Source of the DNA: an uncultured Planctomycetales bacterium
GTDB lineage: Bacteria; Omnitrophota; Gorgyraeia; Zapsychrales; JANLHA01
Length of the DNA: 64,000 bases
NCBI GenBank assembly: GCA_964489065.1
Contig: CAZAXH010000008.1
Span: forward strand, 64,130-128,129
Direction of reading: 5' to 3'
The notes under the pieces were generated by a model, which was given only the letters and a program-made list of their open reading frames with translations, ran no database searches and had not been told where the DNA came from. Positions within the stretch are counted from its first letter, which is position 1, and each line of letters begins with the position of its first letter. The position numbers were made by a program, and so were the translations under genes. Shown here in pieces: positions 6,366 through 52,972 of this stretch.

Positions 6366-7421
6366 ATGATAGAACATTCCAAACCGACATTGGGGCCGCG
6401 CGAGAGACAGGCGCTCCTGAAAACTCTGGCTTCCAATTATATTGCGGAAGGCCAGGAAGTGCATTGCTTTGAAAATGAGGTGGCCGCTTATATCGGTTCC
6501 CCGGGCGCTGTCGCAACGTCCACCGGAACTTTGGGGCTCCATCTCGCACTTCTTTGCCTTGATATGAAGCCAGGGGCCGAGATCATCATCCCAAGCTACA
6601 CTTGCCGCTCTGTTTTAAACGCGGTTTCCTACTGCCGGGCTAAACCGGTGGTATGTGACGTGGAGATAGAAAATTATAATTTGTCTTTTGCGGATGTAAA
6701 AAAAAAAATGACGGCTCGCACGCAAGCGATTATTGTGCCGCATATGTTCGGGTGTCCGGCGCCGATTGACCACTTTAAAACACTGGGGGTTCCTCTTATT
6801 GAAGACTGTGCGCACGCTTTGGGCACCGAATATAAAGGGCGGAAAGCGGGCTGTTGGGGCGATTTGGCCCTGCTTTCTTTTGAAGGTACAAAATATATTG
6901 TAACGGGGGAAGGGGGGATGGTCTTAGCCAACTCTGCCCGCATGCTCAAAAGGCTCCGCAAGTTGAAGGAGGGGGATTCTCCCGATCTTCCTGCGAAATA
7001 CACGTATCGTATGACGGATTTACAGGCCGCCGTGGGACGGGTTCAACTGAGCAGGCTGGAAGATTTTATTAAGAAACGCCGGAGCATCGCCCGGGTTTAT
7101 GATAAAGCCTTCGCATCTGTGACCGAAAGGCATCCGTTGGCGCACATTGACGGCCGCCATATTTACCAGCGTTACATGGTTCAGGTCCGGGGAAACATCC
7201 GTAAACTCATGGAAGATTGCCTTCGCCAGGGGATAAAAGTGAAGCAGCCGGTCAAACCTTATCCTCTGCACCGCTATCTGGGTCTTGCCGGAGGTTTATT
7301 CCCCAACACCGAGCGTATTATGCGTTCGGCGGTCTCTATCCCGATATATCCCTCGTTAACAAAAAAAGAGATTATGCATATAACACAAATACTGCCACCC
7401 TTATTCAAGCGCTATGCCTGA
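6366..7421 (+). CDS. DegT/DnrJ/EryC1/StrS-family PLP-dependent aminotransferase
   Basis: It has the typical N-terminus (KPTLGPRERQALLKTLASNYIAEGQEV..FE), a STGTLGLHLAL segment and the PLP-lysine context SFEGTKYIVTGEGG. Confidence 0.9.
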   Translation: MIEHSKPTLGPRERQALLKTLASNYIAEGQEVHCFENEVAAYIGSPGAVATSTGTLGLHLALLCLDMKPGAEIIIPSYTCRSVLNAVSYCRAKPVVCDVEIENYNLSFADVKKKMTARTQAIIVPHMFGCPAPIDHFKTLGVPLIEDCAHALGTEYKGRKAGCWGDLALLSFEGTKYIVTGEGGMVLANSARMLKRLRKLKEGDSPDLPAKYTYRMTDLQAAVGRVQLSRLEDFIKKRRSIARVYDKAFASVTERHPLAHIDGRHIYQRYMVQVRGNIRKLMEDCLRQGIKVKQPVKPYPLHRYLGLAGGLFPNTERIMRSAVSIPIYPSLTKKEIMHITQILPPLFKRYA

Positions 7422-8406
7422 TACTGAAAAAACAATTATCCCGGTTCCTGATTTGTCCCATGTTGACGCCGGCCCGTTCCCGCCCATGGTGGTTGTCGAA
7501 ATCACGAATGTCTGTAATCTGCAGTGCATCCACTGTCCGTTTTGCTATATATCAAAAGAGCCCGGGTATAAACCGTGCTATATGGCCTGGCCGCTTTATA
7601 AAAAGATCGTGGATGAGGTCGCCGGCCATCCCGGAACCATTTTTCGGCTTTTATGTGACGGAGAGCCCCTCTGCCATCCTCGGTTTATCGATATGGTCCG
7701 CTATGCTAAGACGCGGGGGGTAAGCCCGGTTAATTTTATCACCAACGGGCTTTTAATGGACGGGGCCCGGGCTGCGGCGGTGCTGGAAGCCGGAGTGGAG
7801 GCGGTTGAATTCAGCCTGGATGCGCTTAATAAGAACACATACGAGCGCATCCGGAAAGGTTCGAATTATGAAACGGTCATGCATCATGTCAAAGGCTTTA
7901 TCCGGCTGCGAGACACGTTAAAGGCTCCGACAAAAATTTTTGTCAGCATTATTGACCAGCCTGAAGCCGAAGCCGAGTTGGACGCTTTTGTCGCTTACTG
8001 GACCCCCCGTGTCGACCGGGTTATTACCCGGGCCTACACGTCCATACGGGGCCTTGTTGACCCGGCCAAGATCAAGACCGACCCGCAGATTAAACGCTGG
8101 CCCTGTCCTGACCTTTGGAGGCGTTCGTTTATCAATGTCGACGGTTTTGCCGAATTCTGCGTGGAAGATTGGCACGACCAATCCGTGGTCGGGGATATTA
8201 ACAAAACGACCCTTCAGGCCGTCTGGCAGGGTCCGGATTACGAACGGCTCCGGACCCTGCACAGGCAACGGAGGTTTCAGGAAATTCCTTATTGTGCGGG
8301 CTGTCTGGATTGGCGGGCCCGGGACTGGCATTATGATTATTTTTTGGCTTTGAGAGATACGTTAGGCTCAACGGCAGCCCCAGAGCGGCGGGAGGTGCGG
8401 CCATGA
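7414..8406 (+). CDS. Radical SAM enzyme with an abbreviated SPASM/twitch C-terminal domain
   Basis: The rSAM motif is ITNVCNLQCIHCPF (CxxxCxxC). The C-terminal part has CPDLWRRSFINVDGFAEFC (C-x12-G-x4-C) plus YCAGC. It overlaps both neighbours (7414/7421 and 8403/8406). Confidence 0.85.
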   Translation: MPDTEKTIIPVPDLSHVDAGPFPPMVVVEITNVCNLQCIHCPFCYISKEPGYKPCYMAWPLYKKIVDEVAGHPGTIFRLLCDGEPLCHPRFIDMVRYAKTRGVSPVNFITNGLLMDGARAAAVLEAGVEAVEFSLDALNKNTYERIRKGSNYETVMHHVKGFIRLRDTLKAPTKIFVSIIDQPEAEAELDAFVAYWTPRVDRVITRAYTSIRGLVDPAKIKTDPQIKRWPCPDLWRRSFINVDGFAEFCVEDWHDQSVVGDINKTTLQAVWQGPDYERLRTLHRQRRFQEIPYCAGCLDWRARDWHYDYFLALRDTLGSTAAPERREVRP

Positions 8407-9779
8407 CTTCACGGATTCTCCGAAAAACTCAAAGTGTCTGTCCCCGGTGTCTCGAGACCCTGGACACCTTTATCGTGGAAAAGAACGCAAAAATCGTTAT
8501 GAAAAAAACCTGCCCCCGGCATGGGCTGTTTGAAATCGTATTGTCTTCGACTCCGACTTACTACGCCGAACTCGAGGAGTATTATTTTTCCCTGGCGGAC
8601 ACTCGTTATGAAGTCCCGGAATATGAATTTTGGCCAACCTACCGGTGCAACGCTGACTGCACGATCTGCTGTTTCGGGCGGCAGAATTGGGAGATGGCGG
8701 GGCAGGACGCCTCGACGGGCGAAATTGAAAAACTGGCTAAAAACAGCAAGAAGCGTTTTTTTATTATTTCCGGGGGTGACCCGACCTGCCGGGATGACCT
8801 GGGTGATATTATAAGGACTTTTCGTAAACACGGGAAAGTCGTGACGATCAATACCAACGGCTTAAAATGCGCGGATTTAAACTACCTGAAGAAGTTGAAA
8901 AAGGCGGGCCTGGATCGACTGAATTTGCAATTTGACGGGTTTGACCCCAGATATTATCTGGCTCTGCGGCGTCAGGATTACCTGGACATCAAGCTGAAAG
9001 TTCTTGAAAACCTGCAGACTTTGGGGATTCAGACGACATTCAACGCGACCATCGCCCGGAATCTTAATGAAGGAGCGATCAAGGAATTAATGGATTTCGC
9101 CTCTTCGCACCCTTTTATCAACGGCGTTAATTTCTTTTCCATCTGTTTTCTGGGAGGGGCGAGGGACTGGGAACAAAGTTCATACATCATGCCGGATGAA
9201 ATCATTGACCTGCTCATCAGCCAAATAAGACCCGTTATTTCTAAAAAGAATGTTTTTGTTTTTCAAAAACTTCATCTGGCGGTCAAGTCGTTCCTGGCTC
9301 AGAAATGGTGCTTTTATAATCAGGTCTATCTTTTTGTCCGCAGAAACGGCTCTTTCGAGCCGATTGACCGCTTTCTCAACCTCGCTAAAGCCGAACCTTG
9401 GCTGGACCGTTACAGGGACAACTTCAAGACCAAGCCCTTCTGGGCGCGCGCCTGTCTGGGGATAGCCGTGGGGTGTCTCTTCCTGAAAAAAGAGTCCGTT
9501 ATTATTTTAAAGGAGATCCTTTTGAGGAGCGTGTCCTATTTTCTGAAGACGCGCCATTATCTTCGCGGCAGCCGGTTTTTCTCCGTGAGCTTTTCAACCG
9601 GCTGTGATCCTTATAAATTTGATTTTAACATTGTGAAACATTGCCAGAATGAAATCATCGCGGCCCGGGACCAGGACGGCGTGTTGACTCACTTAGGGAG
9701 CGACGGCCTGTATTGCATGGGGCTGGAGAAACGGTATTTGAGAAATAAACTCCAGAAAGAGGGGATGAGTTCTCGTTGA
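8403..9779 (+). CDS. Radical SAM protein with an N-terminal zinc-ribbon/rubredoxin-like knuckle (subtype A)
   Basis: The N-terminus is SVCPRCL-x19-CPRHG. The rSAM motif is YRCNADCTICCF, followed by SGGDPT. The conserved C-terminal Cys triad is WCFYNQ, CDPYKFD and HCQNEII, and there is a hydrophobic segment FWARACLGIAVGCLFL. Confidence 0.85.
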   Translation: MTSRILRKTQSVCPRCLETLDTFIVEKNAKIVMKKTCPRHGLFEIVLSSTPTYYAELEEYYFSLADTRYEVPEYEFWPTYRCNADCTICCFGRQNWEMAGQDASTGEIEKLAKNSKKRFFIISGGDPTCRDDLGDIIRTFRKHGKVVTINTNGLKCADLNYLKKLKKAGLDRLNLQFDGFDPRYYLALRRQDYLDIKLKVLENLQTLGIQTTFNATIARNLNEGAIKELMDFASSHPFINGVNFFSICFLGGARDWEQSSYIMPDEIIDLLISQIRPVISKKNVFVFQKLHLAVKSFLAQKWCFYNQVYLFVRRNGSFEPIDRFLNLAKAEPWLDRYRDNFKTKPFWARACLGIAVGCLFLKKESVIILKEILLRSVSYFLKTRHYLRGSRFFSVSFSTGCDPYKFDFNIVKHCQNEIIAARDQDGVLTHLGSDGLYCMGLEKRYLRNKLQKEGMSSR

Positions 9780-9780
9780 T

Positions 9781-11052
9781 ATGATGAAAGCCTACCCCCG
9801 ACATTCCGTTGACATTACCTGGCGCGATTACAAGCGCATGGTTTCGTTTTTCTTCACATCCCCGGCCCGGAGGAAAGAATTCCTTCCGGAATTCGAACAA
9901 CGCTTTGCGGAATATACCGGCACCCGCTTCGCCCTGTCCGTGCCGTCCGCCCGGGTGGGGCTTTATGCGATCCTGCAGTATTTTAATTTCCCTAAAGGGG
10001 CCGAAGTTATCATCACCCCGTTCACGCACCAGAGTATTTTTACGGTCCTGAAGACGTTCCGGCTTAAGCCGGTTTTCGTCGATATCGATGAAAAGACGCA
10101 CAATATCGACCCGCACCTGGTCAGGAAATCGGTTTCGGAGAAAACCCGTCTGCTGATTTTAACTCATATGTGGGGGCAGCCCTGCGACATGGCCGCGTTC
10201 ACCGCCTTGAAAAAAGAGTACGATCTGAAAATTATTGAAGATTGCGCCATGGCCGCCGGCGCGACTTACCAGGGGCGGAAAGTGGGGAGTTTCGTCGATG
10301 CCAGCATATTCAGCTTCGGGAAAGCTAAGGCCATTTGCGCTTTCGGCGGCGGGATGCTGTGCTGCCATGACGCCTCCATGAAGGATTTTATCTCCGGCCT
10401 GATCCGGGATTTTAAGCCCTCCCGGAGCCTGCCGCTGGCGGTTTCCGTCATTAATTCCGTGATCGCCAATATCCTGACCCGGCCCCGCTTTTTTTTCTTC
10501 TCCCTTTATCCGGTGATGCGGCTTTTCAACCTGCGGGATCCCTACAATCCGGTTGAACATAAAAAAGACTCCGAAGTCATCCTGGAGCAGATGCCGGAAG
10601 AATGGAAAGTCAAAATGTCGCCGTTTCAGGCCGCCCTGGGGCTGGAACAGCTCCGGAGCCTGGACGCCCGTAACCAGGCCCGGGCCCGTAACGCGCAGCT
10701 TTTGAACTTTTTGTTGGAGGGGACGCCGGGGATCAGTGTGCCCCGGCCGCAACCCGGAGGTAATCATATTTATCTTTACTACGCGGTTCATATACAGAAC
10801 GCCGCTTCTCTGGACGCCCTTAGGTTGAGCTTGCTGAAGCGTTCGGTCGACACGCAATTAAATGAGTTGACGACTCCCCGGCAGCTGCGTGTTTTCGGGG
10901 CGGACAGCCGGACGGTCCCTGTTTTTGAAACCATATCCGCGAATATCCTTGTCATCCCCAACGGGATTTATTTAAATGACCGGGATATCCGGCTTGTGGC
11001 GGAGGCGTTAAAACAGAGCCTGAGGTCCCTTCCGGGGAAGGGGGATGCATGA
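9781..11052 (+). CDS. DegT-like PLP aminotransferase-fold protein (long subtype with a hydrophobic insert)
   Basis: It has a DegT-like layout (ALSVPSARVGLYAIL, IEDCAMAAGATYQGRKVG, FSFGKAKAICAFGGG). A hydrophobic insertion (LPLAVSVINSVIANILTRPRFFFFSLYPVMRLF) follows the lysine motif. Confidence 0.75.
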   Translation: MMKAYPRHSVDITWRDYKRMVSFFFTSPARRKEFLPEFEQRFAEYTGTRFALSVPSARVGLYAILQYFNFPKGAEVIITPFTHQSIFTVLKTFRLKPVFVDIDEKTHNIDPHLVRKSVSEKTRLLILTHMWGQPCDMAAFTALKKEYDLKIIEDCAMAAGATYQGRKVGSFVDASIFSFGKAKAICAFGGGMLCCHDASMKDFISGLIRDFKPSRSLPLAVSVINSVIANILTRPRFFFFSLYPVMRLFNLRDPYNPVEHKKDSEVILEQMPEEWKVKMSPFQAALGLEQLRSLDARNQARARNAQLLNFLLEGTPGISVPRPQPGGNHIYLYYAVHIQNAASLDALRLSLLKRSVDTQLNELTTPRQLRVFGADSRTVPVFETISANILVIPNGIYLNDRDIRLVAEALKQSLRSLPGKGDA

Positions 11053-12431
11053 AAACGGCCCGGCCATCCCGCTCGATATTACGGACAACGGAAAGCGTCT
11101 GCCCGAAATGTTCCGCGCCCCTGCCCGCCAGTATTGTCGCGGATGAAAAAGGCGTGTTTATGGAGAAACGCTGCCCGCAGCATGGAGATTTTCGCGTGCG
11201 CCTGTCCGAAACCCCGGCCTTGTACGCCGAACTGGACGGGTTTTACTGTTCCCTGATGGGGCGGGCGCAACCTTGTTTTGATTATGAAATCTGGCCCACC
11301 CTGCGGTGCAATATGAATTGCGCGATATGTTTTTTCGGCTGTCCGCGGGAATCTTCCCGGGTTTTTGAGCCGACGCTCAACGCCATCGAACAGTTCGTCA
11401 GCCGGGACCCGCACCCGTTTTACTGCCTCTCCGGAGCGGAAGCGACTGTCCGGGATGATTTGCCGGATATCATCCGTATTTTAAAAAAGCACCGGAAAGT
11501 CGTGACGTTGAACACTAACGGAATGCGTTTCGAGGATGAATCTTATCTGTTAAAACTGAAGAACGCCGGGCTGGACCGGGTTATTTTGCAATGCGATGGT
11601 TTTGATCCCCGTGTTTCCCTGAAGATGAGGGGAGAGGATGCTGTCCCCCAACGGCAGCGTGTCTTGGCCCTCTTGGAAAAGCATCATATGCCGACCGCGC
11701 TCAGTTCCACGATCGCCCGGGGCCTCAACGAACATACGGTTTCGGAATTGCTGGATTACGCGCTGGCGCATCCTTTCATCAACGGGATCGCGTTTCTGTC
11801 CATCGCCTTTGACGGCGGGGCCCGGAACTGGAGCCAGGAGCGCTACATGATGCCGGATGAAGTGATCGACGTTGTCTGCCGTGTCCCCGGCTATAACGTA
11901 AAAAAAGAAAACGTGCACAGATTTCAAAAGCTGCATTTCGCCGTCAAGGCGTTCTTGAAGCAGCGCGCGTGTTTATATAATCAGCTTTATGTCCTGGTGC
12001 GCCGGCGGGGTTCCTTTGAGCCTATTGACGCTTTCATGAATCTCGCTAAAGCCGAGCCCTGGCTGGACCGTTACCGGCACGCTTACGCGGGGAAGAAACA
12101 CGGCCTGGCCGCTCTTTATCTGGGGCTGGCTTTGCTATGCCTGTGCTGCCATCGCCGGATTTTAGTCCTGTTCCGGGACCTTCTCGGCTCGGGGGTGTCT
12201 TATTTCTTCCGGACGTCACGATATCTAAGAACAGGCCGACTGCTTGCTTTAAGTTTTACGACCAGCTGCGACCCGTATAAGCTCGACAAGACAATCCTCC
12301 AGAATTGTCAGAATGAAATTATGGCCGCGGATCAAACACCGGACTCTTTACGCCCTATCGGAAGGGAAGGCGCCTATTTCGTGAACCTGGAAAAACATTA
12401 CGCTGAATCTCAACCCCGGGGGGAACCATGA
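11049..12431 (+). CDS. Radical SAM protein with an N-terminal zinc-ribbon knuckle (subtype A)
   Basis: It has SVCPKCS-x19-CPQHG, LRCNMNCAICFF, KAEPWLDRYR, CDPYKLD and NCQNEIM, plus the hydrophobic segment LAALYLGLALLCLCC. ATGA overlaps occur at both ends. Confidence 0.85.
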   Translation: MKTARPSRSILRTTESVCPKCSAPLPASIVADEKGVFMEKRCPQHGDFRVRLSETPALYAELDGFYCSLMGRAQPCFDYEIWPTLRCNMNCAICFFGCPRESSRVFEPTLNAIEQFVSRDPHPFYCLSGAEATVRDDLPDIIRILKKHRKVVTLNTNGMRFEDESYLLKLKNAGLDRVILQCDGFDPRVSLKMRGEDAVPQRQRVLALLEKHHMPTALSSTIARGLNEHTVSELLDYALAHPFINGIAFLSIAFDGGARNWSQERYMMPDEVIDVVCRVPGYNVKKENVHRFQKLHFAVKAFLKQRACLYNQLYVLVRRRGSFEPIDAFMNLAKAEPWLDRYRHAYAGKKHGLAALYLGLALLCLCCHRRILVLFRDLLGSGVSYFFRTSRYLRTGRLLALSFTTSCDPYKLDKTILQNCQNEIMAADQTPDSLRPIGREGAYFVNLEKHYAESQPRGEP

Positions 12432-15184
12432 AACCTGACACGATCATTCGCGCGACGCAAAGCGTTTGCCCTGTATGCCTGGAAGCCGTGCCCGCGACGG
12501 TGCTTGAGAAAGACGGCCGGGTTTACCTGACTAAGACCTGCCCCCGGCACGGGGCCTCCGAAGTCCTTCTGTCTGAGACCGCGGGTCTTTACAAAGAACT
12601 GGAAGGCTTTTTTTCCGCCGTTATGAACCCGTCTTACCGCATCCGCGAATATGAAATCTGGGTGACAATGCGCTGCAACACGTCTTGCACCATCTGTCAT
12701 CTCGGAGACAGCAACAGGATCGACATCCCGGACCCGAGCCTGGAAAAAATCGAGGAGTTTATCCTCCGGCATGACCAGCCGGCTTATATCCTTTCTGGGG
12801 GAGAGCCCACCTGCCGGGAAGACCTGCCGGATATTGTCCGCCTTTTTAAAAAGCACGGCAAGCATATCAGCCTGCACACGAACGGTCTGGCTTTAGGGAA
12901 CAAAGATTACATCCGTTCCCTGCAGGAAGCGGGGTTGGACCGGATCAATCTTCAATTTGACGGGTTCGCGCCGGACGCGTATAAAATTTTCCGGGGGAAA
13001 AATATCCTGGATAAGAAGCAACTGGCTTTAAAAAACCTGGAAGACCTGCGTCTGCCGACGGATTTGAATATCACGGTTGCCCGGGGTGTCAATGAGCCGG
13101 CCGTCATGGACAGCGTCCGGTTTGCCGTTAAACATCCTTTCATCTCTTCCGTTAACTTCTTCACGATCTGCTACCTGGGAGAAACGGCCCGATGGCCTTT
13201 AAAATATTTCCTTATGCCGGATACGATCGGAGACATCCTGGAAAAAGAAACAGGCGGCCGGATTTCCAAGCGCGGCATCATCCTTTTTCAGAAACTGCAC
13301 CTGGCCGTTAAATCCCTGCGTTCGGAGCGTTATTGCCTTTACAGCCAGATTTTTGTCCTGTTCCGAAAACGGGACGGGACGTATGACCCCATTGACCGCT
13401 ATCTTAACCTGGAACGGACGGACAGGCTTCTGAAACTTTATCAAAAAATGGCTCCCGGGCATCCTGTCCTCGCCAAAATAATTTTAATTTTAGGCCTGCC
13501 GTTTTTTATGATGCGCTGGTCCACGCTGGTGATCCTGAAAGAAATCTTGCGGACCGGATTTTCTTTTATGATCAACGAGGATTACGCTTTAAAAACCAGC
13601 CCGTTCCTTTATTTGAATTTTAATACGAGCTGTGATCCTTATAAAATCGATTACGGGTTCGTGCAGGATTGTCAGGATGAAATCATTTTTTATGACCGTC
13701 AGCAGGAACACTTGGTGAACCAGGGAGTGGACGGATTGCGCGCCATCGAGTTCGAGCGCCGCTACCGTAAGGCCGCCCCCAAGGAGACGATTCGCATTGA
13801 TCGGAAAATGGAAACATCCCAGAGGCATAAGCCTGCCGGCTTGGGCAACCGTGTCATTCGGGAGACAATGAGCGTGTGTCCTGTTTGCCTGGCCCCGCTC
13901 CCGGCCAGGATCCGGGCCGGAGCGGATGGCGTTTATCTGGAAAAGACATGCCCCCGGCACGGGGCCTTTCGCGTTTTTGTTTCGACTCATCCGGATGATT
14001 ATCAGGCCCTGTCCGACACTTATTTTTATTTTATCCCCGGGGCTCTGGAACAACGGGAATATTACGTCTGCGCGAGCACGCGGTGCAACATTTCGTGCCC
14101 GATTTGTTACCTGAATTATTGCCCTGAGCGGCCTCCTCTGACGCCCGAGGATATGAACAGCGCCGTGGGGGATAAACCGCAGGTGGAGCGCTTCACGTTT
14201 TCCCACGGCGAGCCCACGGTCTCTCCGCAACTGCCGGAGATGATCCGGGCTTTAAAGAAAGCCGGGAAATTTGTCAACATTCATACGAACGGCGTGAAAC
14301 TTGCCGATTATGCTTATACTCAATCCCTGAAACAGGCGGGGCTGGATCACGTGAGCCTCCAGTTTGACGGTTTTCGTGATGAAATTTATGAGACCCTGAG
14401 AGGCGGGAAGCTCTTGGAGGCCAAAACGCGCGCTTTGGATAATCTTAAGGCGCTGGAAATCCCCGTGACATTAAACGTGACGATCGCCGGGGGCGTTAAT
14501 GAAGACGAGTGGGGCAAAGTTTTTGATTACGTTGTCCGGAATGATTTTATTAAAGACGTGAGTTATATCACTTACTGCCATTACTCCCCTCAGGGGGATG
14601 CCGAGGGCCGGTCCATGATGCCGGACGACCTGGTGATACGCCTCGTGGAGCATTCTCAAGGGACGATTGAGAGGGAGGATGTGGTCTGTTTTCAGAAATT
14701 GTTTTACGCCTATTTAAGCGCCTTCCGCAAGAAAAAATGCTTTAACTATTATCATTATTGCGTTGTGCGGACATCCGGCGGATACCGTGGGATTGAGCGT
14801 TATCTGGATGTGCGGAAGATCGCCGGGAAGATTGACGCGTGCCGGGAGAGAGGACAAACGATGACGAAAACGTTGTTGCTGAAAATATTGTTAACCTCTC
14901 TGCGATGGGATAGTGTGGCGTTGATTCCTTACGGATTATTTTTGCTGTCGCGCGGGGGGTATCCCCCAAGCCCCGGGAAACTTTTAGTCGTGACGTTGGC
15001 CAGTATCTGCGACCCGTATAAATATGACGCAACGGTCGCCTTAAATTGCGGGCAGGGCATTATTACTCAAACCATGCAACATGAGAGTTACGGGACATAT
15101 ATTATCGAGGAGATGAAGCGTTCGCCGCGTCCCGACGCAGCTCGTGTCCTGCCTGACGCGTTTCCTCAAGGGGGTTCGGTATAA
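12428..15184 (+). CDS. Tandem fusion of two zinc-ribbon radical SAM modules (subtype A followed by subtype B), 918 aa
   Basis: Module 1 has SVCPVCL..CPRHG, MRCNTSCTICHL, CDPYKIDYGFVQDCQDEII. A linker (RYRKAAPKETIRIDRKMETSQRHKPAGLGNRVIRET) follows. Module 2 has SVCPVCL..CPRHG, TRCNISCPICYL, ICDPYKYDATVALNCGQGII. The reading frame is continuous in the supplied sequence. Confidence 0.85.
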   Translation: MKPDTIIRATQSVCPVCLEAVPATVLEKDGRVYLTKTCPRHGASEVLLSETAGLYKELEGFFSAVMNPSYRIREYEIWVTMRCNTSCTICHLGDSNRIDIPDPSLEKIEEFILRHDQPAYILSGGEPTCREDLPDIVRLFKKHGKHISLHTNGLALGNKDYIRSLQEAGLDRINLQFDGFAPDAYKIFRGKNILDKKQLALKNLEDLRLPTDLNITVARGVNEPAVMDSVRFAVKHPFISSVNFFTICYLGETARWPLKYFLMPDTIGDILEKETGGRISKRGIILFQKLHLAVKSLRSERYCLYSQIFVLFRKRDGTYDPIDRYLNLERTDRLLKLYQKMAPGHPVLAKIILILGLPFFMMRWSTLVILKEILRTGFSFMINEDYALKTSPFLYLNFNTSCDPYKIDYGFVQDCQDEIIFYDRQQEHLVNQGVDGLRAIEFERRYRKAAPKETIRIDRKMETSQRHKPAGLGNRVIRETMSVCPVCLAPLPARIRAGADGVYLEKTCPRHGAFRVFVSTHPDDYQALSDTYFYFIPGALEQREYYVCASTRCNISCPICYLNYCPERPPLTPEDMNSAVGDKPQVERFTFSHGEPTVSPQLPEMIRALKKAGKFVNIHTNGVKLADYAYTQSLKQAGLDHVSLQFDGFRDEIYETLRGGKLLEAKTRALDNLKALEIPVTLNVTIAGGVNEDEWGKVFDYVVRNDFIKDVSYITYCHYSPQGDAEGRSMMPDDLVIRLVEHSQGTIEREDVVCFQKLFYAYLSAFRKKKCFNYYHYCVVRTSGGYRGIERYLDVRKIAGKIDACRERGQTMTKTLLLKILLTSLRWDSVALIPYGLFLLSRGGYPPSPGKLLVVTLASICDPYKYDATVALNCGQGIITQTMQHESYGTYIIEEMKRSPRPDAARVLPDAFPQGGSV

Positions 15185-15188
15185 AATT

Positions 15189-16751
15189 ATGAAGATCGCC
15201 TTTATTAATGATTCCTGTGAACGGCTGGGTGTTGAATATATTTCAGCCGTGCTTAAACAGCATGGGCACACCGTCAAATTGTTCGCCGATCCGCAGCTCT
15301 TTGATGACGAAAATTTTACAATCGCGCCTCTGGCCAGGTTTTTTGACCGGCAGGAAGACCTGCTGGCCCAAATTCAGGCGTTCCAGCCGGATCTGATCGG
15401 GTTCTCGGTCGTGACGGACTTTTATCAGTGGGCCTGCCGCCTCGCCAGGCGTATCAAAGCGGTGATGGATGTCCCGGTGCTTTTCGGAGGGATTCACGCG
15501 ACATCGGTTCCCGAAAAGGTCCTGCAGCAGGATTGCGTGGATATGGTCTGCCGGGGGGAAGGGGAGTTCGCCCTTTTGGACCTCGCCGACAGCATGGAGA
15601 AGGGCCTCCGGGATTACACGATCCCCAACATTTGGTTTAAAAAAGACGGTGCGATCATCAGGAATGATGCGCGTCCCCTGATCGAGGACCTGGATGCGCT
15701 GCCGTTCGCGGATAAAGACCTTTTTTATGAGGCCAGCCCCCATTTTTCCCGTTGCTATTTCCTGATGACCAACCGCGGCTGCGCTTACGCCTGCAGTTAT
15801 TGCTGTAATTCATTCCTGAAAAAATTTTATCATGCGAAAGGCCGGTACCTGCGTTTCCGCAGCGCCGGAAACGTGATCCGGGAGTTGACCCTGGCCAAAC
15901 AGAAATACGGCATTAAAATGGTCCGTATCCACGATGATGACTTCCTCACGCACGACGTGCCCTGGTTCGAGGAGTTCGCGGAAGAATACTCCCGGCATAT
16001 ACAGGCCCCGTTCGCATGCTTCACGCACCCCAACAGCGTGACGGAAACCAAAGCCCGCCTGCTGAAGAAAGCAGGGTGCCACGATATCGAAGTGGGGGTC
16101 CAGTCCATCTCCTCGGACACGCGTTACCGGATTCTTAACCGCCGCGTTTCGGATGAGCAATTGGTCCGCGCTCTGCAGATATTAAAAGACGCGGGCATCA
16201 AGGTGATCACGGATAATATCCTGGGGCTTCCTCACCAGGGGCGGGAGGAGCTTCTGGATCTCATTAAATTTTATAATAAAAACAGGATCATGAAGATTTA
16301 CTGTTTCGGCTTCCGGCATTATCCGGCCACGGATATCGTCGAATATTCCAGGGACGAGAAACTGCTGAGCGCACAGGATGTCGAGAACCTGGAGAACGGG
16401 ATCAATGTCAAGACCTTCATTCAGAGCGGGGATAATTTGAGCCGTGAGGACCGGCAACTGCAGACATTTTTTGCGTTTCTGCTCTACCTGCCGGAGACGG
16501 TCAATAATTACATCCTTGAGAAAAAGCTGTACCGTTATTTTATCCCGCTCCCGTATTATGTCCTGGTTATCTTTTCCAATTGGCTGCGCATCCCGTACCG
16601 GTACAACTGGGCGCTGCATATTACCGTGTGCCGGTACCGGGTTTATGCTTATAAAACGATAAAGAAAAAGTTTACCTCGGGTATCAGGGCGTTGCTTAAA
16701 AAGTTCCGCCCTTCGGCCTTTAACACGGCGCGGGGGACGCCTGTCCGGTGA
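15189..16751 (+). CDS. B12-binding (class B) radical SAM enzyme, array paralog 1
   Basis: The ATG at 15189 gives MKIAFINDSCERLGVEYISAVLKQHGH, matching the paralog N-termini. The track ORF starting at 15144 overlaps the upstream gene. It has GGIHATSVPE and CRGEGE (B12-binding domain) and NRGCAYACSYC (CxxxCxxC). Confidence 0.9.
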   Translation: MKIAFINDSCERLGVEYISAVLKQHGHTVKLFADPQLFDDENFTIAPLARFFDRQEDLLAQIQAFQPDLIGFSVVTDFYQWACRLARRIKAVMDVPVLFGGIHATSVPEKVLQQDCVDMVCRGEGEFALLDLADSMEKGLRDYTIPNIWFKKDGAIIRNDARPLIEDLDALPFADKDLFYEASPHFSRCYFLMTNRGCAYACSYCCNSFLKKFYHAKGRYLRFRSAGNVIRELTLAKQKYGIKMVRIHDDDFLTHDVPWFEEFAEEYSRHIQAPFACFTHPNSVTETKARLLKKAGCHDIEVGVQSISSDTRYRILNRRVSDEQLVRALQILKDAGIKVITDNILGLPHQGREELLDLIKFYNKNRIMKIYCFGFRHYPATDIVEYSRDEKLLSAQDVENLENGINVKTFIQSGDNLSREDRQLQTFFAFLLYLPETVNNYILEKKLYRYFIPLPYYVLVIFSNWLRIPYRYNWALHITVCRYRVYAYKTIKKKFTSGIRALLKKFRPSAFNTARGTPVR

Positions 16752-16761
16752 AACAAGATAA

Positions 16762-18114
16762 ATGTCTATGAAAACTTATTTCATAAGCGCGTCGACATTC
16801 TGCATGGAACGGATGCTGGACTGCCAGCAGGTTTCCGATTATCTCAAGTTGAACGGCTGGCGTCCGGTGACGCGGGTTCGGCAGGCCGGGCTGGTCATCA
16901 TAAGCACCTGCTCGTTCGGGCGCGAAGAGGACGCGAGCTCCCTGGATTATATCCGTTATTTTCTGCGGAAGAAATCGCCCCGGGCCCGTTTCCTGATTAT
17001 GGGGTGCCTTCCGGTGATCAACCCCGACTTATTATCTTCTTATCAGGATATTCCCGTGCTCACACCGACCACTTTATCCCGGATCGAAACCGTGGCCCCT
17101 CCGGAGAGGACCCGGTTCGCGGATGTCCCGGAACCCAATAAAATTTTGGCGACAGAAGTCACGCACAGTGTTTTTCTGAAAAAAGCGTTAAGTTTCCGTT
17201 CCGCGTTCAGGCAGGGCCTCCGGTGTTTTAAGCCTGATGTAGCGACGTTGCGGCGGGGGCTGTCCTTCCTGAAAGCCGCGGTGCGTTATGTCCCGGTTAT
17301 GAAGGCGCACATTAACCCGTTCTTATCCTGTAACCGGAACGGATTTTATTATTTGAGATTATCCAAGGGCTGCCTGGGGAACTGCAGTTACTGCGCTAAA
17401 AGACATTCGACAGGGACCTTGCAGAGCAAATCCACAACCTCTATCCTCGATGAATTCCGCGCCGGGCTCAGGGCCGGGGAAAAGCAGTTTTATTTATTGA
17501 CGGAAGACGTCGGCTGTTACGGGGCCGACCGGCACACAGATATCGTAGCCTTGTTGAAAAATCTTTTTGAAGCCGGGGAGAGGCATGATTTCCGGATTGT
17601 CCTGTCCAATTTCAATGCCCGGTGGTTCGTGCGGTATTATGAGGACCTGGAGCCGGTCTTGATCCGGAATCAGAACAAAATTTTGTATCTGCAAATACCG
17701 ATCCAGTCAGGCAGCACCCGCATCCTGGAATTCATGAACCGGCATTACACCATTGAAGACGTGGAATCCCGGCTCCTGACTTTAAGAAAGAACGCCCCGG
17801 CGGTCGCCTTCACGACCGATATCATCGCCGGATTCCCGGGGGAAACGGATGAGGATTTTGAACTCACCAAGAAGTTTTTGTCGAAAATACGTTTTCAGCA
17901 CGTTGATATTTTCGCTTACGAAAAACGCCCCGGCACTAAAGCGGGAACGCTTCCCGGGGACGTCCCCCCGGAGATCATCGAAGCCCGTGTCCTGCAGTTG
18001 GCCCGGCTTCAGAACAGCTATCACCGGGGCCCCATGCTTGCTAAAAAAGTGCTGGATGTTATCCGGGAAAACCTGCAGCGCTACCGGAATAAAGCCGTGA
18101 CCCGTACGCCATGA
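16762..18114 (+). CDS. MiaB/RimO-like methylthiotransferase-type radical SAM enzyme lacking a TRAM domain
   Basis: The N-terminal UPF0004-like domain has three spaced Cys (STFCMERMLDC.., IISTCSF, IMGCLP). The rSAM motif is SKGCLGNCSYCAKRH, and GFPGETDEDF is present. The C-terminus ends without a recognisable TRAM barrel. Confidence 0.75.
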   Translation: MSMKTYFISASTFCMERMLDCQQVSDYLKLNGWRPVTRVRQAGLVIISTCSFGREEDASSLDYIRYFLRKKSPRARFLIMGCLPVINPDLLSSYQDIPVLTPTTLSRIETVAPPERTRFADVPEPNKILATEVTHSVFLKKALSFRSAFRQGLRCFKPDVATLRRGLSFLKAAVRYVPVMKAHINPFLSCNRNGFYYLRLSKGCLGNCSYCAKRHSTGTLQSKSTTSILDEFRAGLRAGEKQFYLLTEDVGCYGADRHTDIVALLKNLFEAGERHDFRIVLSNFNARWFVRYYEDLEPVLIRNQNKILYLQIPIQSGSTRILEFMNRHYTIEDVESRLLTLRKNAPAVAFTTDIIAGFPGETDEDFELTKKFLSKIRFQHVDIFAYEKRPGTKAGTLPGDVPPEIIEARVLQLARLQNSYHRGPMLAKKVLDVIRENLQRYRNKAVTRTP

Positions 18115-19625
18115 CAAAACAAGGCCTGAGAATTGCTTTTGTGAATGATTCCTGCGAGCATTTGGGGGTTGAATATATCTCCGCCGTGCTGAAATCCGCA
18201 GGGCATGATACCCGTCTATTCGTTGACCCGCTTTTGTTTGATGATGAATTTATCACCGTTAAGGGGCTCAGCCGCCGCTTTGATTACACTAAGAAGATTA
18301 TCCGGGACCTCAGGGCTTATCAGCCGGATCTGGTCAGCCTGTCGGTGGTCTCAAGCTTCTATCCCTGGGCCGGCCGGATGGCCCGGGCTATAAAGGCGGA
18401 GATGGACGTCCCCGTTATCATGGGCGGTATTCATCCGACATCCGTTCCCGAAAGTGTCATCCAGAACGACGCCGTGGATATGGTCTGCCTGGGGGAAGGG
18501 GAATACCCCCTGCTGGAACTTGCCGACAGTATGGCCCGGGGAAGTATCGACGACACCGTAAAAAACATCTGGTTTAAAAAGAACGGGAAGATCCTGCGCA
18601 ACCCTTTGCGGCCGCTTATCGACGATTTAGATGCCCTCCCGTTTCCCGATAAAGACCTTTATTATTCCGTCAGCCCGCATTTTTCAAAAAGTTATTATAT
18701 CGCGACCAGCAGAGGCTGCCCCAACGCCTGCAGTTATTGCTGTAATTCTTACCTGCATTCTTTGTACAAGGGCCTGGGCGCGCCGCGGCGGTCGCGCAGC
18801 GTCCGGAATGTCATTGAAGAATTAATGTGGGCCCAAAACCGTTACCGGATCGATCCGGTTTTCTTCCTGGATGACTGTTTCGGGACCGATTTGGGATGGT
18901 TAAAAAAATTCGCGACGGAGTACCGAGAAAAAGTCGGCGTTAAGTTTTACTGCATGATGTTCCCCGCACCCCAGATGGAAGAGGCGGTTGAATATCTCGC
19001 GCAGGCCGGCTGCGGGGAAATCGAGATCGGCGTCCAGTCCTGGGATGAAGATGTCAGGCGCCGGATATTCAACCGGCGCGTTTCGAACGACACGATGATC
19101 CGGACGATGAAATTGATCAGGAAGGCGGGGATCAATCTCGTGACAGGCGATATCCTCGGTTATCCCGGGCAGAAAGAGGAGCATATTTTAAAAACCGCGG
19201 AGATTTACACAGACATAAAACCCAGCCGGACGTACGCTTTTATCCTGAAATATTTTCCCAAAACGGAGATCACGGAACAGGCGCTGCAGAACGGATGTCT
19301 GAGTCCGGCGGATCACGAAAAAATATTGGACGGCCATTACGGCAAATACTTATCGAAAGACGGCTCCATGACAGAGAGGGATGTCATGCAATATCTGCTT
19401 CTATTTTTGCTGGTGCGTATTTTACCGGTCTCTTGGGCCAAGACAGTAATCCGGAAAAAATTTTATAAGCGTTTCCCGGTTTTGTTCACGCCGGCCGTGA
19501 TTTCAATCCTGAATAATTTTTCGACATCCACCTTTGAATCGCAGGTCAACCGGAAAAGCGCCCTGGCACGGTACACTTTTTTCATTAAACGATTGTTTTC
19601 TAAATCCAAAGCAGGTGCGCGATGA
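18111..19625 (+). CDS. B12-binding (class B) radical SAM enzyme, array paralog 2
   Basis: It has LRIAFVNDSCEHLGVEYISAVLKSAGH, GGIHPTSVPE, CLGEGE and SRGCPNACSYC. The ATGA overlap with the upstream gene is at 18111/18114. Confidence 0.9.
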   Translation: MTKQGLRIAFVNDSCEHLGVEYISAVLKSAGHDTRLFVDPLLFDDEFITVKGLSRRFDYTKKIIRDLRAYQPDLVSLSVVSSFYPWAGRMARAIKAEMDVPVIMGGIHPTSVPESVIQNDAVDMVCLGEGEYPLLELADSMARGSIDDTVKNIWFKKNGKILRNPLRPLIDDLDALPFPDKDLYYSVSPHFSKSYYIATSRGCPNACSYCCNSYLHSLYKGLGAPRRSRSVRNVIEELMWAQNRYRIDPVFFLDDCFGTDLGWLKKFATEYREKVGVKFYCMMFPAPQMEEAVEYLAQAGCGEIEIGVQSWDEDVRRRIFNRRVSNDTMIRTMKLIRKAGINLVTGDILGYPGQKEEHILKTAEIYTDIKPSRTYAFILKYFPKTEITEQALQNGCLSPADHEKILDGHYGKYLSKDGSMTERDVMQYLLLFLLVRILPVSWAKTVIRKKFYKRFPVLFTPAVISILNNFSTSTFESQVNRKSALARYTFFIKRLFSKSKAGAR

Positions 19626-21136
19626 AAATCGCTTTTGTCAACGATTCATCCCAGCAGCTGGGTATACAATATATTTCGGCCGTCCTTAAACAGCACGGCC
19701 ATGACGTGAAGCTGTTCATGGACCCCCAGTTATTCGATGACGATGTGATCCGGGTCCCCCGATTGAGCCGGTGGCTTGATTCCAAGAAAGAGCTTGTCCG
19801 GCGTCTGAAAGCCTATCAGCCCGACTTGGTCGGGATCTCCGTGGTGACGGATTTTTACCAGTGGGCCCGCCGGATCGCCACGATGATCAAGGAAGAAATG
19901 GATGTCCCGATTATCGCCGGCGGAATCCACCCGACATCCGTTCCCGAGAGAGTGCTGAAAAACGATTGTTTTGACATGGTGTGTCTGGGAGAAGGGGAGT
20001 TTGCTTTGTCGGAACTGGCCGACAATATGCAGAAGGGAACGCCTGACTACACGATCCGTAATATCTGGTTCAAACGGGACGGCCAAATCATAAAAAATGA
20101 ACTCCGGCCGCTTATCGATGACCTGGACGACCTGCCCTTTCCGGATACGGACTTGTATTATTCCGCCAGTCCTCATTTTAAAAGGACCGGCCTGTACGTT
20201 ACCATGACTTCTCGCGGCTGTCCGAACGCCTGCACGTACTGCTGTTTTTCTTACCTGCAGGGGCTTTACAAAGGGAAAGGGAAAAGGATCCGGCAGCGCA
20301 GCGTCGGCAATGTCATGAGTGAATTGCGGACCAACAAGGAAAAATACAACATCAAGTTCGTCGCGTTTATGGACAATTGTTTCGGGTATGATTCGAAATG
20401 GTTGCGGGAATTTGCGCCCGTTTATCAGGCGGAGATCGGGATTAAATTCTGGTGCATCATGCATCCCAAGGATGTCACGGAAGAAACCCTGAAGCATTTG
20501 AAGCGGGCCGGGTGCCACACGATTGACATGGGGGTGCAGTCGTGGAACGAGCGCATCCGCAAGGAGGTCCTGCACCGGGATGTCGGGAATGACACGATGG
20601 CCCGCGCGATCCTCCTGGTCAAGAATGCGGGGATCGAAATCATGACCGACAGCATTTTCGACCTTCCCGGGCAAACGGAAGACGACATCCTGGAAAGTGC
20701 CCGCCGTTATGCGGAAATCCGGCCCAAGCGGATATATTTTTACATGCTCCGGCATTACCCCAACACCCTGATTACCCGGATGGCGAAGGAGGATAATCTT
20801 CTGACCTCATCCCGGTATGAAGAAGTGATGGACGGGGTGAACGTCACGTCTTTCACCATCGGAGGCGACAAGGTCAATAAAGACATGATCCGGTTTCAGA
20901 TCCTGTTTTATCTGATCGATTTGATCCCCAAACGGATGAGCTTGTTTATCATCCGCAGGAGACTGCACCGGTATTTCCCTCTCATGTTCGGCCCCGCCAT
21001 GATCGTGATCCTGCGTAATTTGCTGGCCTTTGACATGAACGCCCGGCTTCAGCGCGCCTGGGCCTTTAACCGTTACGCGCATTTTATCTGGGAGAAAATC
21101 CGTCCCGTCCGAAAATGCCGGGGACATCAGCCATGA
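19622..21136 (+). CDS. B12-binding (class B) radical SAM enzyme, array paralog 3
   Basis: It has MKIAFVNDSSQQLGIQYISAVLKQHGH, GGIHPTSVPE, CLGEGE and SRGCPNACTYC. The ATGA overlap is at 19622/19625. Confidence 0.9.
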   Translation: MKIAFVNDSSQQLGIQYISAVLKQHGHDVKLFMDPQLFDDDVIRVPRLSRWLDSKKELVRRLKAYQPDLVGISVVTDFYQWARRIATMIKEEMDVPIIAGGIHPTSVPERVLKNDCFDMVCLGEGEFALSELADNMQKGTPDYTIRNIWFKRDGQIIKNELRPLIDDLDDLPFPDTDLYYSASPHFKRTGLYVTMTSRGCPNACTYCCFSYLQGLYKGKGKRIRQRSVGNVMSELRTNKEKYNIKFVAFMDNCFGYDSKWLREFAPVYQAEIGIKFWCIMHPKDVTEETLKHLKRAGCHTIDMGVQSWNERIRKEVLHRDVGNDTMARAILLVKNAGIEIMTDSIFDLPGQTEDDILESARRYAEIRPKRIYFYMLRHYPNTLITRMAKEDNLLTSSRYEEVMDGVNVTSFTIGGDKVNKDMIRFQILFYLIDLIPKRMSLFIIRRRLHRYFPLMFGPAMIVILRNLLAFDMNARLQRAWAFNRYAHFIWEKIRPVRKCRGHQP

Positions 21137-22653
21137 AGATCGCGTTTGTCAATGATTGCGTCGAGAGGCTGGGGGTTGAATATATTTCGGCGCTCCTGAA
21201 GGGGCAGGGGCATCAGGTGAAACTTTTTGTCGATCCCCAGCTTTTTAATAACGTGTATGTGCAGATCAACCGCCTGAGCCGGTATTTTGATTACACGGAA
21301 AGAATTATTCGCGGTCTCATGGAATATCAGCCGGACCTGATCGGATTCTCCGTGGACACGGAATCCTATCAATGGGCTTCCCGTCTGGCGCGGCGCATTA
21401 AGGAGCGCATGGAAACTCCCATTATTTTCGGCGGGATCCATCCGACATCCGTGCCGGAGCGGGTTATTTTAAATGAAGCCGTGGATATCCTTTGCGTCGG
21501 GGAGGGGGAACACCCCATGCTGGAACTGGTCAACAGCATGGCCCGGGGCGGCGTGGACACGGCAATAAAGAATTTGTGGTTTAAAACGAACGGCAGGATT
21601 ATCACAAATCCCTTAAGGCCTCTTTTGGCCGACCTGGACAGACTCCCGGTCGCCGATCACGGCCTTTTTTATGACACTTACCCCTATTTCCGCAAAGGGT
21701 ACAGCACGATCGCTTCGCGCGGCTGCCCTTACGCCTGCAGCTACTGCGGGCACGCGTATCTGCGGCAATTGTATCAAAACAACGGGGCCTATTTCCGTCA
21801 CCGCAGTGTCGAAAATCTGCTGGATGAATTAGCGCTGCGCCTGACGCAGTATAAAATCGATATCATCACTTTCTTTGACGACAATTTCGGTTTTGAACCG
21901 GAGTGGCTGGAGAAATTTTCCGTCCGGTACGCCAGGGATATCAGAAGACCGTTTACCGTGACCGCCCGCCCGGAAATGATTTCCCGTGATTATGTCCGCC
22001 TCTTGAAACAGGCCGGATGCTGCTCCGTGACCCTGGGCGTTCAAACCTGGGATGATGCCGTTCGAAAAGAGTGGTTTAACCGGGATGTGAACCCGGAGGT
22101 GATGCTGAAGGCCATGCGGCTCGTCAAGGAAGCGGGCCTGGAATTGATCTGTGATAACATATTCGGGGTTCCCGTTGAAAACGATGAGGGGTATATGCGG
22201 GCGTTGCTGCCCTATGCCGATATTAAACCCGACCGGATCCTGTTTAATCAGCTGAAATATTTCCCGCGCGTGCCGATCACGGAAAAGGCCCGTGAAGGAA
22301 ATTTCATATCGGAGCAGCGGTATGACGCCATTATGGACGGCCGGGACCAGAAAGGAATTTTCCTGGGGCCGTCTGCCGCGAGCCGTGGGGACCGTAGACA
22401 GCTGATCCGGAAAAAACTTTTTTTATATTCATTGGATTGGTTGCCAAAAACATGGGCGCGGTTTATTATTAATAAGCGTCTTTACCGTTATTTCCCGACT
22501 TTCATTAACCCGGCGGTTCTTCCGGTTTTGCGGACGTTTTTTTCGTCCGACACGGACACGCGATATTTTAAACGCCGGACTTTATCACGCTACTGGTATC
22601 ATTTGACCCCACGCCTGCGGGGTCGGAGGAGACACGATGAGCCCACAAACTGA
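21133..22653 (+). CDS. B12-binding (class B) radical SAM enzyme, array paralog 4
   Basis: The ATG at 21133 (ATGA overlap with the stop at 21136) gives MKIAFVNDCVERLGVEYISALLKGQGH. It has GGIHPTSVPE, CVGEGE and SRGCPYACSYC. The track start at 21115 is probably too early. Confidence 0.9.
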   Translation: MKIAFVNDCVERLGVEYISALLKGQGHQVKLFVDPQLFNNVYVQINRLSRYFDYTERIIRGLMEYQPDLIGFSVDTESYQWASRLARRIKERMETPIIFGGIHPTSVPERVILNEAVDILCVGEGEHPMLELVNSMARGGVDTAIKNLWFKTNGRIITNPLRPLLADLDRLPVADHGLFYDTYPYFRKGYSTIASRGCPYACSYCGHAYLRQLYQNNGAYFRHRSVENLLDELALRLTQYKIDIITFFDDNFGFEPEWLEKFSVRYARDIRRPFTVTARPEMISRDYVRLLKQAGCCSVTLGVQTWDDAVRKEWFNRDVNPEVMLKAMRLVKEAGLELICDNIFGVPVENDEGYMRALLPYADIKPDRILFNQLKYFPRVPITEKAREGNFISEQRYDAIMDGRDQKGIFLGPSAASRGDRRQLIRKKLFLYSLDWLPKTWARFIINKRLYRYFPTFINPAVLPVLRTFFSSDTDTRYFKRRTLSRYWYHLTPRLRGRRRHDEPTN

Positions 22654-23980: not shown

Positions 23981-24013
23981 ACCAGGGGGATGAAGGTCGG
24001 CAAGGATAAGGTT

Positions 24014-27012: not shown

Positions 27013-27029
27013 CCGCGGAAAGGATTAAC

Positions 27030-30291: not shown

Positions 30292-30304
30292 CACAAAAAC
30301 TCAT

Positions 30305-49071: not shown

Positions 49072-49081
49072 GGATTTGAAT

Positions 49082-52076: not shown

Positions 52077-52123
52077 AATACTCATTGAATAAATTTTTGG
52101 GAAAGAGAGGAAATGATGTTAGA

Positions 52124-52969: not shown

Positions 52970-52972
52970 AGT

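Follow-up and report, generated by a model that had tools for sequence, protein, structure and literature searches.

A DegT aminotransferase and a BtrN-like twitch radical SAM enzyme as a candidate amino-sugar module in Omnitrophota

The DNA analysed here (the window) is a 64,000-nucleotide (64-kb) stretch from an uncultured bacterium of the Omnitrophota, positions 64,130 to 128,129 of contig CAZAXH010000008.1 in assembly GCA_964489065.1. Near its start lie two overlapping plus-strand genes. The upstream gene, DegT1 (6366-7421; 351 amino acids, ATG start), encodes a pyridoxal phosphate (PLP) aminotransferase of the DegT/DnrJ/EryC1 family. The downstream gene (7414-8406, 330 amino acids, ATG start) encodes a radical S-adenosylmethionine (SAM) enzyme with Pfam matches to Radical_SAM and SPASM, hereafter the twitch rSAM. 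The DegT1 stop and the rSAM start share an 8-bp overlap, ATGCCTGA (7414-7421, plus strand), read from the sequence, which suggests that translation of the two genes is coupled. The overlap had been noted in a first-pass annotation of this DNA, and the open reading frames (ORFs) confirm it. Both are real genes: the closest database proteins are 94-100% identical and labelled Candidatus Omnitrophota, and more distant orthologues number in the hundreds. Together, the two enzymes probably aminate a sugar of the cell surface and dispense with the NAD-dependent enzymes that usually serve this purpose.

The Radical_SAM match of the twitch rSAM has an E-value of 1.5e-15 (58.2 bits, cut-off 29.5), and the SPASM match (7.4e-11) covers residues 231-297. 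Among 21 aligned family members with identities down to 37%, seven cysteines are invariant and no others: C34, C38 and C41, in the C-X3-C-X2-C arrangement of radical SAM enzymes, and the C-terminal C231, C249, C294 and C297. The four C-terminal cysteines make up one fully ligated auxiliary cluster; the domain is therefore a twitch domain and not a two-cluster SPASM domain. A full SPASM maturase would need seven or eight conserved cysteines in this region. The first-pass annotation had described the enzyme as twitch/SPASM, of which the first half stands and the second does not. A twitch domain of the BtrN type is a truncated SPASM domain with a single four-Cys [4Fe-4S] site (PMC9012708). In BtrN the auxiliary cluster has four Cys ligands, its potential is very low, and it has been proposed to accept an electron in a two-electron oxidation; MoaA, by contrast, has three Cys ligands, an open iron and a redox-neutral reaction (PMC9012708). 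Numerous invariant Arg and Lys residues in the alignment, among them R147, R166, K174, R206, R228, R237 and R280, suggest an anionic substrate for the twitch rSAM.

A single-sequence search of the PDB was ambiguous (PqqE 1.3e-6, BtrN about 3e-5) and was replaced by a search with a profile of the 21-sequence alignment. Against all PDB sequences, the profile found BtrN first with an E-value of 9.6e-18, followed by MoaA (1.5e-10), GDGT-MAS (6.6e-10), SkfB (1.7e-8), CteB (4e-8), anSME (5e-8) and DesII (1.1e-6). BtrN thus leads the next solved protein by seven orders of magnitude. The profile aligns with both the BtrN core (residues 6-122) and its twitch domain (167-250), with all four auxiliary cysteines in register, and a C-[VF]-E-D-[WF] motif is common to both proteins. 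DesII is aligned in its core only, and no part of it matched the four-Cys auxiliary region of the family. With the relationship confined to the core, the twitch rSAM does not belong with the DesII-type deaminases.

An AlphaFold (AF2) model of the twitch rSAM (pLDDT 87) has a six-strand core. Foldseek ranks BtrN with SAM and substrate bound (4m7t) first (2.3e-12; TM-score 0.75 normalised on BtrN), and DesII (second, 7.3e-12), SuiB, anSME, BlsE and MoaA are close behind. The E-values all fall between 1e-12 and 1e-10, and the fold search alone does not separate BtrN from DesII, SuiB or anSME. The single four-Cys auxiliary site and the nearest match by both profile and fold place the enzyme with the twitch-domain proteins of the BtrN type. 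By analogy, two-electron dehydrogenation of a secondary alcohol is a plausible activity. An orthologue of BtrN itself, the 2-deoxy-scyllo-inosamine dehydrogenase, was considered and ruled out by the identity of ~16%, the 80 extra residues (330 against about 250 in BtrN), the six core strands and the lack of a 2-deoxy-scyllo-inosose (2-DOI) context.

The DegT_DnrJ_EryC1 match of DegT1 covers nearly the whole Pfam profile (4.1e-80; 270 bits, cut-off 19.8). DegT1 retains the PLP lysine (K176, motif SFEGTK) and the PLP-binding Asp147 (motif IEDCAH), and it belongs to the DegT/DnrJ/EryC1/StrS aminotransferases, with the lysine kept and not the His of the dehydratases. Its nearest solved relatives are 7b0d (4e-49), perosamine synthetase (1.3e-47) and ArnB (6.4e-42). 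The 2-DOI aminotransferase of butirosin biosynthesis is matched at only 4e-23, and nucleotide diphosphate (NDP)-sugar aminotransferases are much closer. DegT1 scores below every NCBIfam equivalog cut-off (PseC, LegC, ArnB, WecE, DesI); the best score is 208 bits for PseC (cut-off 423.5), and ArnB reaches 178 bits (cut-off 631). The first-pass annotation had likened the pair to BtrN and its DegT-family partner BtrS (BtrR). The likeness holds for the rSAM, which resembles BtrN in its cysteines, profile and fold; for DegT1, perosamine synthetase and ArnB are nearer than the 2-DOI aminotransferase. Outside the Omnitrophota, DegT1 has its nearest relatives in a conserved module of four genes, WbqC, PIG-L deacetylase, DegT and WecA/MraY-type transferase (L085, 4267-10146; L086, 6676-10226), with no obvious ketone-forming enzyme inside. 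The layout of this module recalls the MshB/MshC logic on a lipid-linked N-acetylglucosamine. The module fits an amino-sugar reading.

The gene neighbourhood was compared across 78 loci, found by scanning a single genome from each species and ordered on a neighbour-joining tree of the twitch rSAM. Neighbours were sought within 10 kb on either side of the rSAM gene and, for the window, in the whole 64 kb. The loci were annotated with phmmer seeds, and these counts are used for neighbours because the Pfam model of Acetyltransf_6 is weak and the Pfam count of immediate neighbours is too low for that family. The Omnitrophota/PVC group consists of 17 loci, the window included, and 16 of them have upstream sequence. 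In 13 of the 16, the twitch rSAM gene overlaps with a DegT1 orthologue (at least 325 bits) or is separated from it by no more than 3 bp; in two others the orthologue lies within 4 kb, and in the last (L008) it is missing. The co-conservation that the first-pass annotation had proposed to check is thus borne out. All 17 loci are set among Tes-like and class-B rSAM genes and hold up to three DegT genes. In none of the 17 did we find a short-chain dehydrogenase/reductase (SDR), GFO/IDH/MocA oxidoreductase, hexapeptide acetyltransferase or Acetyltransf_6 gene within the search range.

For the window itself, Pfam scans took in every ORF of 150 amino acids or more (58 in all) and one shorter ORF (3-308). 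They gave no SDR epimerase or dehydratase, GFO/IDH/MocA, hexapeptide acetyltransferase or nucleotidyltransferase, and no gene for a dehydroquinate synthase (DHQS)-like protein, inositol synthase, inositol-phosphate synthase or 2-DOI synthase. The phmmer seeds for SDR, GFO/IDH/MocA, hexapeptide and Acetyltransf_6 proteins, taken from related loci, matched none of the window ORFs of at least 90 amino acids. The lack of a dehydratase, epimerase or nucleotidyltransferase in the window, read from the letters at first pass, is therefore upheld by the Pfam scans, with which the phmmer screen agrees. At Rfam gathering thresholds, no riboswitch or other RNA was found in the window. The flanks of the window, like those of a related locus (L001), consist of housekeeping genes.

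The twitch rSAM belongs to a family represented by 4014 sequences (50%-identity clusters) at E<=1e-30 in an exhaustive profile search, and is therefore part of a large family. Its members occur in Omnitrophota, Nitrospirota, Myxococcota, Planctomycetota, Ignavibacteriota and other phyla, and glycan-type neighbours outside the Omnitrophota include NTP_transferase, glycosyltransferases of families 1 and 2 (GT1, GT2), Maf-like glycosyltransferases and FemAB-like acyltransferases. A second group of 39 loci (Nitrospirota, Myxococcota, Ignavibacteriota, Gemmatimonadota, Thermodesulfovibrionales, some Pseudomonadota and others) lies in ordinary nucleotide-sugar clusters. Acetyltransf_6 is found in 32 of the 39 loci, DegT in 29 and GFO/IDH/MocA in 27, and SDR, hexapeptide and small GT2 genes are also carried. 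A third group comprises 15 loci of Planctomycetota, Desulfobacterota and other taxa, 13 of which have WbqC, mostly as a direct neighbour of the rSAM. Outside the Omnitrophota, the steadiest neighbour of the rSAM is thus an N-acylating enzyme (Acetyltransf_6 or WbqC) and not DegT. A GT2 gene adjoins the twitch rSAM in many of the other loci. The first-pass annotation had named dehydratase genes conserved just outside the window as a finding that would speak against its idea. None accompanies the cluster in Omnitrophota, where the flanks are housekeeping genes; such genes are conserved with the rSAM in other phyla.

Natural fusions link the family to sugar amination and N-acylation enzymes. In P0302, DegT and rSAM form one 737-amino-acid protein, flanked by Maf-like (MptE-like) glycosyltransferases with WbqC alongside. 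WbqC is fused to the rSAM in P0262. In P0323, the rSAM follows a formyltransferase domain whose E-values are 6e-28 against the ArnA formyltransferase domain and 1e-29 against Met-tRNA formyltransferase; the neighbours are NTP_transferase, SDR, DegT, GNAT, AsnB, WbqC and GT1. Further layouts occur in a set that includes P0252, P0267, P0270, P0333 and P0344. Many family members of ~525-535 amino acids carry an extra N-terminal domain of ~215 residues with a conserved 'TQWEHCR(L/I)P' motif and no Pfam match. P0344 has a different N-terminal domain, which weakly resembles CTP_transf_3 cytidylyltransferases at an E-value of 0.002, below threshold. One protein of 1927 amino acids holds several rSAM modules of the twitch-family type.

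In the window, the pair opens a cluster (about 6.3-51 kb) of about 25 radical SAM genes and three DegT genes, all features described below being on the plus strand. The first-pass annotation had seen no sugar-nucleotide genes here. Such genes are indeed lacking, but a set of glycan genes is present. An MprF-type (LPG_synthase_TM) membrane protein (30194-31366; Pfam 1e-21, 8 transmembrane-like segments) is a putative flippase for a lipid-linked sugar. It is followed by a small GT2 of the polyprenyl-phosphate sugar synthase type (31303-32076; Glycos_transf_2 5.4e-23), which is ArnC/PpgS-like at the family level, its NCBIfam scores for ArnC-type (63 bits) and PpgS (47 bits) proteins both being under cut-off. 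Next is a WbqC-family protein (32078-32773) with a predicted fold like that of BshC and class I aminoacyl-tRNA synthetases (HUP), a candidate N-acyl ligase for an amino sugar. A YfhO-like polytopic membrane protein of the GT-C type (32915-34765; YfhO 3.5e-8, 9 transmembrane-like segments) and, further on, a PMT_2 (ArnT-like) GT-C glycosyltransferase (44621-45982; 7.5e-25, 8 transmembrane-like segments) are also encoded. The AsnB-like glutamine amidotransferase (49076-50962; Asn_synthase 1.3e-56) may be a partner in converting the sugar amine to an amide or amidine; AsnB-like genes recur beside WbqC and/or the twitch rSAM in six other loci (L058, L063, L067, L074, L084, L085). An ABC-2 type exporter of the glycan or lipid export type (ATPase and permease; 52085-53716) was identified by Pfam.

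The rSAM set between 6366 and 51000 comprises five modules of the Tes/HMPTM type, about 13 class-B enzymes, one MiaB-like protein and two small Fe-S-rich ones. This rSAM cluster is kept across Omnitrophota (L001, L004, L006, L008, L011, L012, L017, L019, L020). Directly after the pair, a Tes/HMPTM-type rSAM (8403-9779; Zn_ribbon_HMPTM and Radical_SAM) overlaps the twitch gene by 4 bp; its NCBIfam scores for TrsS (153 bits) and Tes (144 bits) are both far under cut-off. DegT2 (9781-11052; Pfam 6.6e-66 in two stretches, motifs SFGKAK and IEDCAM) comes next; many other Omnitrophota loci also have it downstream of the pair. Eleven further rSAM genes of the same operon occupy 11049-28640, identified by Pfam and with all NCBIfam matches far under cut-off. 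Those starting at 11049, 12428 and 22637 are Tes-like, those at 15144, 18111, 19622, 21115, 23990, 25537 and 27030 are of class B, and that at 16762 is MiaB-like. The double module at 12428-15184 is a 918-amino-acid tandem fusion of two whole Tes/HMPTM-type modules, with two Zn-ribbons and two Radical_SAM cores. A 400-amino-acid HEAT-repeat protein (37979-39181) starts the second plus-strand block of the cluster.

That block contains a second trio. DegT3 (40880-42124; Pfam 8.3e-74, lysine motif SLGATK) starts with an ATG after an upstream stop at 40875. In DegT2 and DegT3, a hydrophobic insertion of 60-80 residues follows the PLP lysine and is lacking in DegT1; it may be an adaptation to a membrane or lipid-linked substrate. 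The next gene (42134-43612) encodes a class-B-like rSAM (Pfam Radical_SAM) that scores 134 bits for BchE and 117 bits for HpnJ, both under cut-off. The third encodes a small Cys-rich rSAM (43609-44613) with matches to Radical_SAM and Fer4_12 only and 8 C-terminal cysteines. The first-pass annotation had taken this protein for a second SPASM enzyme parallel to the twitch rSAM. The order of the three genes is as it described, but the 43609 protein has no Pfam SPASM match and no match to BtrN in the PDB search; its best matches are SkfB (1.3e-10) and BlsE, a sugar-nucleoside decarboxylase (8.8e-10). Judged by its sequence, it is of a different family from the twitch rSAM. Its homologues recur in three of the fetched loci, which are glycan loci with a twitch rSAM (L002, L017, L065).

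Several known pathways share features with the pair. The butirosin genes offer the closest rSAM and a DegT-family partner, but they belong to a 2-deoxystreptamine cluster, whereas the genes here are those of envelope glycans or lipid-linked sugars. In the Arn pathway, which places 4-amino-arabinose on lipid A, ArnA fuses a formyltransferase to an SDR oxidase, and the ketone formed by this oxidase goes to the DegT enzyme ArnB. Both loci combine a DegT, a small GT2 of the polyprenyl-phosphate type, a flippase candidate and a PMT_2/ArnT-like GT-C enzyme, those of the window being identified at the Pfam level, and P0323 repeats the two-domain layout of ArnA with an rSAM replacing the SDR oxidase. 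The window differs in having neither SDR nor formyltransferase, in its ArnB and ArnC NCBIfam scores far under the cut-offs, and in its about 25 additional rSAM genes. The WbpB/WbpE/WbpD and GnnA/GnnB modules follow a similar logic, from hydroxyl to N-acylamino group on a nucleotide sugar, and genes of the Wbp type (GFO/IDH/MocA, DegT, hexapeptide) adjoin the rSAM in many non-Omnitrophota loci. Their oxidase is an NAD-dependent GFO/IDH/MocA enzyme, however, which is absent from the Omnitrophota clusters examined. In desosamine biosynthesis, DesI and DesII are encoded by a DegT gene and then an rSAM gene, and both act on one nucleotide sugar.

Combining these observations, we propose that DegT1 and the twitch rSAM form an NAD-independent module in which two steps turn a sugar's secondary hydroxyl into an amino group, with a probability of roughly 0.5. 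The substrate would most likely be a common nucleotide-activated or polyprenyl-phosphate-linked hexose. The twitch rSAM would cleave SAM, and the resulting 5'-deoxyadenosyl radical would take the carbinol hydrogen. The substrate radical would then collapse to a ketone and pass an electron to the fully Cys-ligated auxiliary [4Fe-4S] cluster, as proposed for BtrN. From its family and intact PLP motifs, DegT1 is expected to transaminate the ketone. The gene context suggests the later steps: the amine may be N-acylated, with WbqC and AsnB as candidates; the small GT2 may put the sugar on polyprenyl phosphate; the MprF-type protein may flip the product; and the GT-C enzymes (PMT_2, YfhO-like) may move the sugar to an envelope acceptor. 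Roughly 20 further rSAM enzymes would tailor the product.

Oxidation followed by transamination is the best single explanation among the readings considered because it accounts for the BtrN-type cluster, the ArnA-like fusion and the presence of up to three DegTs with no NAD-dependent oxidase. The fully ligated four-Cys cluster is tied to two-electron oxidation in BtrN, and the twitch rSAM has no invariant Cys to spare as a hydrogen donor; both count in favour of this mechanism. By adjacency or fusion, the rSAM has N-acylating partners of three unrelated kinds (formyltransferase, Acetyltransf_6 and WbqC/BshC-like), which speaks for action on the sugar, at the amination or a neighbouring step, and not on the acyl group. 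The acyl group is an unlikely target since it differs among the partners, and a formyl group has nothing to modify. A sugar, rather than a lipid or peptide, is the most likely substrate because of the nucleotide-sugar clusters elsewhere and the GT2, flippase, WbqC and GT-C genes in the window. The first-pass suggestion of a hydroxylated lipid or a glycan is thereby narrowed: the family context favours the glycan and makes the lipid unlikely.

A number of points weigh against this mechanism, and several of them favour a less probable but serious alternative, in which DegT1 aminates a keto sugar made elsewhere and the rSAM acts after amination, by epimerisation, dehydration, deamination as in the DesI/DesII logic, ring contraction or C-C bond formation on an amino or N-acylamino sugar. 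The order of genes and of the fusion, DegT then rSAM, suits a step after amination equally well, and the Nitrospira-type loci read GFO, DegT, Acetyltransf_6, rSAM. The non-Omnitrophota clusters already hold SDR and GFO/IDH/MocA enzymes able to supply ketones to their DegTs, and two loci (L003/L070 and L083) pair the rSAM with Acetyltransf_6 and have no DegT within 10 kb. For these reasons, the role of ketone supplier is plausible rather than firm. A gene elsewhere in the genome could also be the source of the keto sugar here. BtrN has an abridged rSAM core, unlike the six-stranded model, and identity to it is only ~16%; known twitch rSAMs include ones that epimerise or rearrange, and DesII is the second-best fold match. 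The function proposed for the family is drawn from sequence, a fold model and gene context. On the other hand, DesII matches the profile in its core only, at 1e-6 against 1e-17 for BtrN, with the twitch region unaligned. An acylated amine makes deamination implausible, and Cys-dependent rSAM epimerases require a Cys hydrogen donor, for which the family has no spare invariant residue. A step after amination would also leave the three DegTs of the 45-kb cluster with no ketone source.

A substrate other than a glycan, such as a free polyol, cyclitol or hydroxylated lipid in an aminocyclitol-like or aminolipid pathway, is distinctly unlikely. The substrate of BtrN itself is a free aminocyclitol, the deposited name of 7b0d, the top PDB match of DegT1, is 'glutamine--scyllo-inositol transaminase', and the window has no nucleotide-sugar genes. 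The Tes-like rSAMs are related to lipid-modifying enzymes, and DegT2 and DegT3 carry hydrophobic insertions. Set against this are the nucleotide-sugar and glycan context of the family as a whole (NTP_transferase, SDR, GFO, GT1/GT2, Maf-like glycosyltransferases), the fusion to an ArnA-like formyltransferase domain (which matches Met-tRNA formyltransferase about equally well), the GT2, flippase and GT-C genes of the window, where inositol-phosphate and 2-DOI synthase genes are lacking, and the far closer relationship of DegT1 to perosamine synthetase and ArnB. It is hardly credible that the twitch rSAM is a peptide-modifying SPASM maturase of ribosomally synthesised peptides that are modified after translation (RiPPs) or proteins, with the DegT adjacency incidental. 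The maturases anSME, PqqE, SkfB, CteB and SuiB do share an rSAM core and a C-terminal Fe-S domain of common ancestry with it; Pfam labels its C-terminus SPASM, its top NCBIfam scores are for maturase families, though all far under cut-off, and PqqE came first in the single-sequence search. However, maturases have two auxiliary clusters, peptide substrates and a RiPP recognition element (RRE) or precursor context, none of which is seen for the twitch rSAM. Pfam gave no PqqD/RRE match in the rSAM or its neighbours, and no precursor-like gene lies beside it. We therefore rejected the RiPP reading on the four-Cys count, the profile in which BtrN precedes SkfB, CteB and anSME, the lack of an RRE or precursor gene, and the conserved DegT pairing together with the fusions to DegT, formyltransferase and WbqC. 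The first-pass annotation had asked whether the enzyme groups with the peptide maturases; it does not, with SkfB, CteB, anSME and PqqE all weaker than BtrN.

Our literature searches found no description of the twitch rSAM family, its link to WbqC or the Omnitrophota rSAM cluster. Butirosin biosynthesis already uses the logic of oxidation and transamination, and the Arn and Wbp pathways use it in NAD-dependent form; a large uncharacterised family that applies it to envelope glycans would represent a novel variant. A broader proposal, which we regard as doubtful, is that the family (at least 4000 clusters at 50% identity, E<=1e-30) acts generally as an NAD-independent 'radical ArnA' that oxidises an unactivated hydroxyl of a nucleotide- or lipid-linked sugar for a DegT, and that in Omnitrophota it opens a ~45-kb pathway of ~25 rSAM enzymes to a heavily C-modified amino-glycan or glycolipid of an undescribed kind. 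If so, 4,6-dehydratases and GFO oxidases would be bypassed. Since natural DegT-rSAM and formyltransferase-rSAM fusions exist, the pair is a tractable experimental entry into the large Omnitrophota rSAM cluster. It would also provide the first functional lead for the WbqC family with its BshC-like fold. Should the rSAM instead carry out another radical step on an amino sugar, a new sugar-tailoring reaction would be at hand. If the proposed mechanism is true, thousands of 'radical SAM/SPASM' genes in polysaccharide loci, so far unannotated, would gain a function, and radical dehydrogenation of the BtrN type, rather than being confined to one antibiotic pathway, would be a widespread route to envelope amino sugars in anaerobes.

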